A stretch of DNA of 64,000 bases from Octopus vulgaris (Eukaryota). The notes below the pieces were generated by a model. The model had not been told where the DNA came from and did no database searches. It saw only the letters and a program-made list of their open reading frames with translations. Numbering within the stretch: position 1 is the first letter of the stretch; every line of letters begins with the position of its first letter. The position numbers and the translations under genes were made by a program. The DNA lies in NCBI GenBank assembly GCA_951406725.2, contig OX597835.1, positions 11,842,001-11,906,000 of the forward strand. The letters run 5' to 3'. Positions 19,735 through 23,790 of this stretch are shown here, one piece after another.

Positions 19735-19965
19735 ATATTTTTTTCTCTCCTTGTTTTTTCTGTGTCCCTTTCTGTAGAAGAGCGTAGGCTCGAAACGTAA
19801 AAGACTTCTTCTATTCCTGAGCGTTATACTAATACATCTGATTGTTTTGTACACCACCTGTCTTTGATATTTTTGATAAGGTTCGTCTTTTCAAGAAGAA
19901 CCGAAACATGTAAAATCTCTAAGAAAATTAAAATTCACCTTATATAGTGGCGTTTTCAAACTTCT
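19735..19965 (+). mobile_element. Two adjacent hammerhead-like modules between (TA)n tracts (HHR-like at 19768-19803 and 19866-19919)
   Basis: cttt CTGTAGA a gagc[gtag]gctc GAAA cg TA aaag, and attt TTGATAA ggttc[...]gaacc GAAA catg TA aaat. The first family reappears reversed at the window end (~63940-64000). Confidence 0.65.
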
Positions 19966-20304
19966 TTATATATATATATATATATATATATATATTATAT
20001 ATATATATATATATATATATATATATATATATATATATATGTGTATGTATATAATATATATATACATATATAGATATATAGATATATTTGTTGTTGGTGT
20101 GATGTCTTCATTGCGGATAGCATTGTAAATAGTTTTTGCTGCCAAATATAGTTAGCACCGAGCTGTAGCAGAGGATACTTCACCACGACGTTATTCCGTG
20201 TATTTGAACCCGGTACCTTGTGGCTTTGAAGCGAATTTCCGACCGCACGCCCATATCTTTGCTTACGTATTTCCAGATGTGCATATATCCACATTTATAT
20301 ATCG

Positions 20305-21012
20305 TGGCACTACGCCGACGAGGGTTCCAGTTGATCCGATCAACAGAACAGCCTGCTAGTGAAATCAACGTGTAAGTGGCTGAGCATTCCATAGTCACGT
20401 GTACCCTGAACGTAGTTCGCGGGAAGATTCAGCGTGACACGGGGTGTGACACGGGTGGCCCTTTTAAATACAGGTACAACAGAAACAGGAAGAATGAGTG
20501 GAAGAAAGAGTACAATAGGATTCGCCACCACCCCTGTTGGAGCCTCGTGGAGCTTTAGGTGTTTTCGCTCAATAGGGAGGAAGCACTCCGTCGGTTACGA
20601 CGACGAGGGTTCCGGTTGATCCGAATCAACGGAACAGCCTGCTCGTGAAATTAACGTGTACCCTTAACGTAGTTCTCGGGGATATTCATCGTGACACGGA
20701 GAGTGACAAGGCCGGCCCCTTGAAATACAGGTACAACAGAAACAGGAAGTAAGAGTGAGAGAAAGTTGTGGTGAAAGAGTACAGCAGGGATCACCACCAT
20801 CCCCTGCCGGAGCCTCGTGGAGCTTTTAGGTGTTTTCGCTCAATAAACATTCACAACGCCCGATCTGGGAATCGAAACCGCGATCCTATGACCGCGAGTC
20901 CGGTGCCCTAACCACTGGGCCATTGCGCCTCCTTCGCTCAATAAGCACTCACAACGCCCGATCGCCCAACCGCGACTCCATTGCCCTATCCATTGGACCA
21001 TTGCACATCCAC
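20305..21012 (-). mobile_element. Cluster of SINE-B copies (older ~20305-20572, younger ~20578-20932, head remnant ~20933-21012)
   Basis: Repeated gacgagggttcc...caggtacaacagaaacaggaag...tgttttcgctcaata. The younger copy appears to split the older one at cgctcaata. Confidence 0.85.
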
Positions 21013-22361
21013 TACATCTATATATACATACCCGTGTATACCCATGCTTTTGTCTTGTGCCTTCACTTCTGATCTTATACTTGCGTATTTCTTGTATCTC
21101 TATCTTTAACTTATACATCATATTATTTCTTTGAACACTATTCCTGTTCCCCTTCTCTTCTACATCAAACCTGTCTTCTTCTAAATCCCTATTATTTCTC
21201 TCCGTCTTTCATTTCAGCAACTTTAAAAATTTTACCTTCTTCACTAAACGTCTTCTAATTTTCTATAATATATCAATGTTTACGCAGCAATTACTTCTTC
21301 AAGTCACTTACTGCCGCCGAGAGGGTTGTCAGCGAAACATTCAAGCAACAGCCACTCTGCATTTCTGTACAAACAATTATACACACACACTTGCATTCAC
21401 ATGTGTGAGTGTGTATACATATATGTAAATTTAAGTATATATGTATATGTGTTTGAACATGTGTAAATGTATATATATATATATATATATATATATACAC
21501 GCACACAGACACACATATATATATATGCATATATATATATATACATATATACAGTACATGTATATTCATTTATCGATATCTGTCTGTCTATCTGTCTACC
21601 TATTTATCTATCTATTTACCTACCTATCTATCTATCTATCTATCTATCTATCTATCTATATATATATCTATCTATCTATCTATCTATCTATCTATCTATC
21701 TATCTATCTCTCTCTCTCTCTATATATATATATATATATATATATTTATATATATAAATATTTATATAAATATTTATTTAATTATATATATATATATATA
21801 TATATATATTTATTTAATATATATATATATATATATATATATATATATATATATATATATATATATAAATATAGTGTGTGTGCGCGCACGCGCTCGCATG
21901 TGTGTTGCTACGATGCACTCACACAGATGTCTTTTACTAACATTTAGTCTTTTGTGCATGCCCATTCATACCTACACATATCCACGGGCATACACAAAGA
22001 CGCAAAATTCACATCATATCACGTATACGTAATCAACCGCAAAACATCTTACATATCTAAAGCTATTTCCATTTGATGCTATTCGAAATAAATTCAACAT
22101 ATAATTTCATAGTTTAGTTATTTCATTTTTTTTTTTTTTTTTTTTATTCTGTTATCAAAACTGAAAAATTAAGACCTAAATATTTCAAACATATTTCTAC
22201 ACGCATAAACACATAAAAAAGAATCAGTTTTGTAAAGATGCCTGAATTTTCAGTGTAGATGAGTACATTCCTAATCATACAACTTTATCCTGAGGGTATC
22301 ACTTTAAAACGGTTTTAACTCATCATTTCAAGTAATATTCTTCCTACTTTTGCTGTGTGGT

Positions 22362-22738
22362 GGAAGCACTCCGTCGGTTACGACGACGAGGGTTCCGGTT
22401 GATCCGAATCAACGGAACAGCCTGCTCGTGAAATTAACGTGTAAGTGGCTGTGCACTCCACAGACACGTGTACCCTTAAGGTAGTTCTCGGGGATATTCA
22501 GCGTGACACAGAGAGTGACAAGGCCGGCCCTTTGAAATACAGGTACAACAGAAACAGGAAGTAAGAGTGAGAGAAAGTTGTGGTGAAAGAGTACAGCAGG
22601 GATCACCACCTGCCGGAGCCGCGTGGAACTTTGGGTGTTTTCGCTCAATAAACACTCACAACGCCCGGTCTGGGAATCGAAACCGCGATCCTACGACCGC
22701 GAGTCCGCTGCCCTAACCACTGGGCCATTGCGCCTCCA
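22362..22738 (-). mobile_element. SINE-B, full-length
   Basis: Near-identical to 12804-13191. Confidence 0.9.
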
Positions 22739-23549
22739 AGTACGAATTACACTTCTCTCAAGTACGAATTCCACTGATCTTTCTATTCAAATACATTTTT
22801 GAATTTATTTATATATGTATGTATTTGCTTATTCATTAATTGTTACTTATTTCCTCTTTGTTCACAATGTTATTTATTATGCTATGGTTTTCTGTTGTTG
22901 CTATTATCCACCTTGTTCTTGCAGCTATCTTCACACCAGAAGAACAATTCTTTGCTTTTTAAGATGACTTAAATTTGACACTGATTGATGAAGACACTTT
23001 TAAAGATATCCTGAAATTATTGAAACTATTACTTGTTTTAGAGAAAAGGTCGAGAGAGTTGGTAAAAATCAATAGGAAACAATGATTCAAAAATTTCGTT
23101 ATTTTCTGTTCATAACAATTGTCTATTTCGTAGCTGACCTGTCCTCTCTCTCTAGGCAAGCAACTATCTCTTCAAATACTATTATGAAAAGATTTCAACT
23201 TTTCATACGTACGTGCCTTCACACTTAGAAATCATTCGTAATTAGAAGTCTTCACAGCTACATAGGTATATCTTTGTATGTCTATATATAGAGTGAAAGA
23301 TAGACAGTTAGATAGATATATAGATAGATAAATAGACAGACTGACAGGCAGATATATATATATATATATATATATATATATATATATATAGATAGATAGA
23401 TAGATAGATATATAGATAGATAGATAGATAGATAGATAGATAGATAGATAGATAGATAGATAGATAGATGAATATATGTATGTAAGTCTATGTTCATAGA
23501 TATAAATATTTATATGTATATATATATATATATATATATATATATATAC

Positions 23550-23790
23550 ACAACGACCTCGAACCCACAAGTGTGAACAAGAGAGACAGAGCAAGGCAGA
23601 AACAAGGAAAATGCCACTTATATTTGAACACTATACAAATGTTCCTTTAAAAAAACATTTCTTTTAATTTTTCTAAATCTAATTATTTAATCCTTACAGT
23701 TGAAAAGGTCTCAAAGTGACTGAAACCTGTACTGAAATGTTCTTTATAAAATGATTTTAGCATTTTCTATTTTGACTTATTTTTTCATAT
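23550..23790 (+). mobile_element. Short module between (TA)n tracts with a hammerhead-like motif (23697-23734)
   Basis: cag TTGAAAA ggtc[tcaaagt]gact GAAA cctg TA ctg. Confidence 0.55.

Follow-up and report, generated by a model that had tools for sequence, protein, structure and literature searches.

Two U3:A8 hammerhead motifs and an abundant U6-core repeat, likely related to Penelope-like elements, in a 64-kb stretch of DNA

Two short motifs in this stretch of DNA, site A (19869-19916, forward strand) and site B (23697-23734, forward strand), resemble minimal hammerhead ribozymes in which the core pair C3:G8 is replaced by U3:A8. They raise the question of whether such cores are traits of repeat families or products of decay or chance, and which kind of element carried them. 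The window, meaning the whole stretch of 64 kb, is AT-rich (GC 26-43% per 2 kb) and dense in dispersed repeats and in tracts of (TA)n, (AAT)n and (TATC)n; 57,361 bases were left unmasked for the descriptor scans. A SINE-like, unclassified dispersed repeat of about 390 nt, with copies 96% alike at 20290-20940, 22361-22740, 12803-13194 and 39761-40152, lies between and around sites A and B in both orientations. A unit of 184-186 nt is repeated in tandem at 60914-62137 and 45056-45888 and also occurs inverted at other places in the window. The frames at 8063-8434 (forward), 38219-38563 (reverse) and 58043-58630 (forward) gave no Pfam match but resemble decayed LINE fragments.

Structure and significance of the U3:A8 sites

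The earlier note on this DNA had described U3:A8 cores at both sites, and the expected anatomy was found in place around each of them. Site A was recovered by the descriptor and the covariance model as a type I minimal hammerhead. Its stem I pairs 19869-19872 with 19913-19916 (4 bp; 6 of 7 pairs form when it is extended to 19866/19919), and its core, TTGATAA (19873-19879), is followed directly by stem II, with no extra base after A9. Stem II (19880-19902) consists of 5 bp, a G.A mismatch and 4 bp, has G10.1-C11.1 as its closing pair and forms with a probability of about 0.98. Then come GAAA (19903-19906), CATG, U16.1 (19911) and A17 (19912), so that the predicted cleavage site lies after A19912. 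The Watson-Crick pair between positions 3 and 8 is present as U3:A8, A6 is present, and the palindromic helix III strand (19906-19911) can form a 6-bp duplex with itself (-4.6 kcal/mol).

Site B, found by the descriptor and the model, is a damaged type I minimal hammerhead. It has a 3-bp stem I (23697-23699 with 23732-23734), the core TTGAAAA (23700-23706), a 4-bp stem II, GAAA (23722-23725), the non-palindromic CCTG and TA (23730-23731). The 3-8 pair is again U3:A8, A6 is present and the extra base between A9 and stem II is again absent. Its helices are weak: stem II forms with a probability of only 0.2, and the helix III strand does not pair with itself (+1.6 kcal/mol). With its G.U closing pair at 10.1-11.1 and its broken palindrome, site B looks decayed outside the 3-8 pair. 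An AT-rich tail (23735-23786, forward) leads from it to a (TA)n tract. No second copy of site B was found within the window, and a pattern specific for its family gave no matches in metagenomes. A branch-point-like and acceptor-like stretch (23675-23699, forward) ends with its AG at the 5' strand of the site B stem I, and a 40-codon exon-like frame (22963-23082, forward) follows a pyrimidine tract and AG further upstream.

The number of such folds expected by chance was estimated with 150 local dinucleotide shuffles, using a descriptor relaxed enough to accept site B, with thresholds chosen after the hits had been seen. The window contained three U3:A8 folds, namely sites A and B and a weak fold at 42578 on the reverse strand, the mean per shuffled window was 0.020, and none of the 150 shuffles reached three; TTGANAA folds are thus not equally frequent in shuffled DNA. 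When G10.1 was required, two U3:A8 folds were found in the window and 0.000 in the shuffles. At the stringency of site B, no U3:G8 or C3:A8 fold occurred in the real window. The U3:A8 folds at 42578 (reverse) and 50206 (forward) were rejected as chance matches, as they lack the usual stem II or are not matched by the model.

A covariance model that used 7 metagenome motifs but nothing from the window served as a held-out test, with rough E-values, for ranking the sites in the 64 kb. Site A ranked first of 19 matches (E=2.9e-8), a canonical C3:G8 motif at 28644 on the reverse strand second (E=0.00096), site B third (E=0.0078) and a further motif at 19772 fourth (E=0.047). The type I order with G12, A13 and A14, the pair A15.1-U16.1 and H17 was found at site A, site B and 19772. 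Folding energy alone failed to set the sites apart from shuffles (z -0.56 for A and -0.89 for B). Rfam gave no hammerhead match at the gathering score in the whole window, and none among the 57 matches obtained at E<=10 in 19600-24000. Because the canonical motif at 28644 also fell under the Rfam gathering score, these misses reflect the models. The earlier expectation that standard searches would overlook these families therefore stood for Rfam, which is blind to them, but not for descriptor searches, since a U3-A8 descriptor had already been run in 2014 (Cervera and De la Pena). The two sites confirm that Rfam and searches limited to CUGANGA undercount such motifs.

The canonical C3:G8 minimal hammerhead (28604-28649, reverse), detected by the descriptor and the model, represents a fourth family, and a more decayed copy of the same family was recognized by sequence identity at 16868-16909 (reverse; 86% identity over 160 nt when the second copy is compared with 28541-28696). 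Besides sites A and B, two further families in the window thus carry such motifs with a similar 3' layout. Two copies of another repeat ending at (TA)n were observed at about 31050-31290 (forward) and 56040-56310 (reverse); in them a hammerhead-like CTGATGC precedes a stem that reaches 8 bp at most and GAAA, but neither stem I nor helix III is clearly recognizable.

Four public runs were aligned to 19735-19960 at 80% likeness, with differences listed from 5%: the contig sets X1, X3 and X7 (organisms A, B and D) and the raw reads X23. X1 possibly derives from the source of the window itself. The contigs of X1, X3 and X7 break the region into two repeat families at 19864/19865. Site A lies in the second of these, in a 3' fragment of about 100 nt from a lower-abundance family (19865-19966, forward), recognized from contig depth and sequence, which ends at a (TA)n-rich microsatellite (19967-20090, no strand). 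The summed depth at the site A core (19871-19878), which is not a copy number, was 86k in X1, 104k in X3 and 6.8k in X7. No alternative letter reached 5% at any position of 19865-19916 in these three sets, which supports for site A the earlier view that its core does not look like a product of decay. The differences listed for the family were a 3-nt deletion in loop II (2-9%) and substitutions just beyond stem I. Most of the site A repeat family therefore carries U3 and A8. Because depth at the core was 63-66% of the maximum over stem II, clipping could have hidden a minority subfamily that has another core; the uniformity of the family makes the state of the master copy visible, but not selection.

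The earlier note had further called the two families unrelated and had taken the double change as covariation that arose in both. At the sequence level they are indeed unrelated, as the alignment score of the 3' tails of A and B was within chance, being reached by 421 of 2000 shuffles, but their architecture is shared. In both, the 7-nt core runs straight into stem II with no extra base, helix III has a 4-nt insert, position 17 is A, and an AT-rich tail of 52-55 nt is followed by (TA)n. With this common architecture, one ancestral swap would explain both sites, and covariation in two families was not demonstrated; the swaps in A and B may be a single ancestral event.

A U3:A8 pattern with CATG was also searched in metagenomes, where it matched 49 loci (33 distinct), of which two fold fully. 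The unselected neighbour motifs at these loci were drawn from 45 of 76 model matches, after 31 duplicates or weak matches had been dropped and then overlaps with the search pattern; the 18 distinct neighbours comprised 13 C3:G8, 1 G3:G8, 4 other and no U3:A8 motifs. Lone U3:A8 copies may therefore come from the decay of large C3:G8 families, and the metagenome loci were rejected as U3:A8 families on the basis of these neighbours. Apparent 3-8 covariation in the metagenome alignment (4 C-G and 3 U-A) was not used, because the rows had been selected by the pattern and the argument would be circular. The metagenome contigs L001, L002, L007, L011, L014, L022, L042 and L048 contain 2-4 C3:G8 minimal hammerheads within 3 kb; these have the CATG palindrome and often lie on opposite strands, like described truncated Penelope insertions.

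An abundant repeat family with U at core position 6

A third motif, absent from the earlier note, sits 101 nt upstream of site A and was supported by the descriptor, the model and contig depth as a type I minimal hammerhead with a C3:G8 pair and a U6 core (19768-19803, forward). The core CTGTAGA (19772-19778) is followed by an extra A, a 4-bp stem II, GAAA, CG and TA, and stem I has 4 bp. The G10.1-C11.1 closing pair and the extra base between A9 and stem II are both present, and the helix III self-duplex is 4 bp long (-1.7). The motif departs from the requirement for A6, and U6 is found family-wide. It lies in a high-copy repeat fragment (19737-19864, forward) whose depth reached 4-10 million in X1 and X3. 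Elsewhere, copies of this family continue past 19864 into a short T-rich tail, which accounts for the loose ends behind that position. A second copy lies on the reverse strand near 63940-64000, truncated by the end of the window. The depth of the U6 family was 81, 98 and 233 times that of the site A family in X1, X3 and X7, respectively. The U6 motif thus represents a family of its own, similar in kind to that of site A but far more abundant.

Core position 6 of hammerheads is regarded as a nearly invariant A, and N7 is a free position. In the U6 family, A at position 6 made up 0.5, 0.7 and 0.5% of depth in X1, X3 and X7, and no other alternative letter was listed there. N7 differed in 28, 48 and 52% of depth, with all three other bases occurring, and H17 changed from A to U in 2, 16 and 21%. 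The remaining changes listed in the motif were mostly CpG transitions and changes at the end of stem I. Since U6 is fixed while N7 varies, the pattern is that expected of a hammerhead under selection. Coverage was deepest on the hammerhead, which is flanked by many loose ends at 19767 and 19807; this indicates that diverged subfamilies have the hammerhead part in common. From these data we infer that selection acts on the hammerhead fold with U6. X23 gave only 9 reads on 19735-19960, none of them over site A; five carry A at 19775.

These observations lead to a tentative reading, somewhat less likely to be right than wrong, in which one of the most abundant repeats of this genome has a putatively working dimeric U6 hammerhead that is kept by selection across subfamilies and organisms, with a rare A6 form surviving. 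Its activity, if any, may possibly depend on the protein of the element or on an unusual metal ion. If the reading is true, three hammerhead core types occur in one animal genome, and U6 is a natural variant not yet described. For these reasons, namely the fixed U6, the free N7, the rare A6 form and the very high copy number, the U6 family carries more weight than the U3:A8 sites. It would also offer a test of whether Penelope hammerheads persist for cutting or only as a fold.

The site A element follows directly at 19865, where the U6 family is cut, an arrangement that a template switch or the insertion of one element beside the other would likely explain. The U6 motif and site A are unlikely to work as a tandem: a duplex between their differing helix III strands is worth -0.2 kcal/mol, and none of the listed contigs covers the region from end to end. 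Outside animals, none of the 120 examined viral loci with the U6 pattern folded (about 290 such stretches were estimated in all), and a 20-nt word of the U6 family was not found in prokaryote genomes.

Origin of the motifs and alternative explanations

We consider it likely that A and B are type I minimal U3:A8 hammerheads left as 3' stubs of Penelope-like elements, whose parent dimers would cut at GUA and whose solo copies are probably inert. Both stubs would lie at (TA)n insertion targets. A parent RNA would contain two terminal repeats, and their palindromic helix III strands would pair to form a dimer that cuts after GUA. The solo copies in the window are probably inert, site B more so than the others. 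The layout agrees with that of published Penelope minimal hammerheads, with a short stem I, a long stem II, AU-rich flanks and, at site A, G10.1-C11.1 and a palindromic helix III. Site A and the 19772 motif each belong to a dispersed multi-copy family, and site B is single in the window. No Penelope protein gene was found in the window, as none of the 150 longest low-repeat frames (among 156 frames of at least 62 aa) gave any Pfam match; the stubs are too short to contain a frame with reverse transcriptase and GIY-YIG.

A preferred target of Penelope-like elements is described as (TA)n (PMC8557442), and these elements are reported to make up 6.83% of the Octopus vulgaris assembly (PMC13282606). 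Metazoan Penelope minimal hammerheads were described as inactive monomers and slow dimers (PMC4209133). For an Anolis element it was reported that C3G or G8C alone abolishes cleavage, that the double change partly rescues it, and that cleavage requires protein (PMC11167929).

Two other origins were considered for site B. It could be a decayed C3:G8 copy in which two transitions and the loss of a base followed insertion, while A represents a true U3:A8 family. The other decay in B (the G.U pair at a likely former CpG and the broken palindrome) and the metagenome U3:A8 matches amid C3:G8 neighbours agree with this; however, two or three core changes would have to recreate the 7-nt core layout of A, the scans, run at the stringency of site B, gave no fold with U3:G8 or C3:A8, and a U3:A8 family does exist in the genome, which makes this origin improbable. 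It is less probable still that B is the start of a host exon after the acceptor-like AG at 23699 and folds by chance. An acceptor-like sequence is present, stops occur in all three frames within 24 nt as in a last exon, and the fold has a z of just -0.89, but its model E-value of 0.0078 and the expectation of 0.02 such folds per window argue against chance. The upstream frame 22963-23082 has neither a Pfam match nor a homolog (tests that are weak at 40 aa), and an acceptor would also suit the element, since an intron of Drosophila Penelope is reported to end at the 5' end of helix I (PMC4209133). The layout of site A is repeated at site B, and we therefore prefer to place B in a U3:A8 family.

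The remaining alternative concerns all of the motifs, which might be family-wide but catalytically dead, with a master of changed core amplified through the fold or the protein. In vitro insertion of the Anolis element was reported to be independent of cleavage and unimpaired in hammerhead mutants (PMC11167929), Naiad elements are described as spreading without canonical hammerheads (PMC8557442), and the site A family is too uniform for selection to show. On the other hand, U3-A8 hammerheads were reported active in vitro (PMC3088659), and the non-CpG variation of the U6 family falls at N7, H17 and the stem I end, which together with its depth peak points to selection on the fold. We regard this alternative as unlikely, less so than the two proposed for site B, and retain descent from Penelope-like elements with hammerheads that cut as dimers.

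Comparison with known hammerheads

The U3:A8 core itself is already known (2011, 2014), and at site A it is a real family trait. Perreault et al. (2011, PMC3088659) described U3-A8 covariation in natural hammerheads, with the same compensatory pair as in A and B; in the accessible sections, those hammerheads are not tied to Penelope or to the dimer-type minimal form. In 2014, U3-A8 was reported in Cercyon Penelope-like elements of Schistosoma, with about 1,300 motifs found by a U3-A8 descriptor (PMC4209133). Among the 56 published examples in that source, all have A6, two have U3-A8 (both with an extra base) and one has U3.G8; two have no extra base, and both of these combine A17 with a longer helix III. 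U3-A8 and C3-G8 occur on similar stems in Schistosoma mansoni(4) and S. japonicum, and no cephalopod occurs among the 56 (PMC4209133). As described, Cercyon of Schistosoma mansoni resembles A and B in its type I order, U3-A8, the shortness of stem I and length of stem II, a minimal helix III (palindromic at site A) and mostly solo dispersed copies. However, in the Cercyon U3-A8 examples A9 is separated from stem II by an extra base and the helix III insert is 2 nt long, whereas A and B, known here from stubs only, have no extra base, a 4-nt insert and A17. The U3:A8 sites thus add a host and a slightly altered layout to a known variant, and have small weight alone.

The closest precedent for the 19772 motif is the A6C hammerhead of phage Bcep176, a natural change at position 6 reported as slow in Mg2+ and favoured by Mn2+ (Perreault 2011; PMC7151607), and the only natural exception at this position that was found in the literature covered. 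In contrast, Bcep176 is one phage sequence with C6, and the 19772 motif belongs to very high-copy animal repeats with U6 fixed and N7 free. The accessible sections of PMC11662667, PMC11014351, PMC13725137, PMC8557442 and PMC6765202 contain no natural U6 case, and none was found in the literature covered; the Penelope-variant survey of Lünse 2017 lies outside it and may contain some. Lastly, non-LTR retrozymes are described as non-coding type I hammerhead repeats traced to Penelope terminal repeats (bioRxiv 10.64898/2026.07.22.740005). They resemble A and B in this respect, but form tandem arrays, whereas the motifs in the window are solo stubs beside microsatellites.
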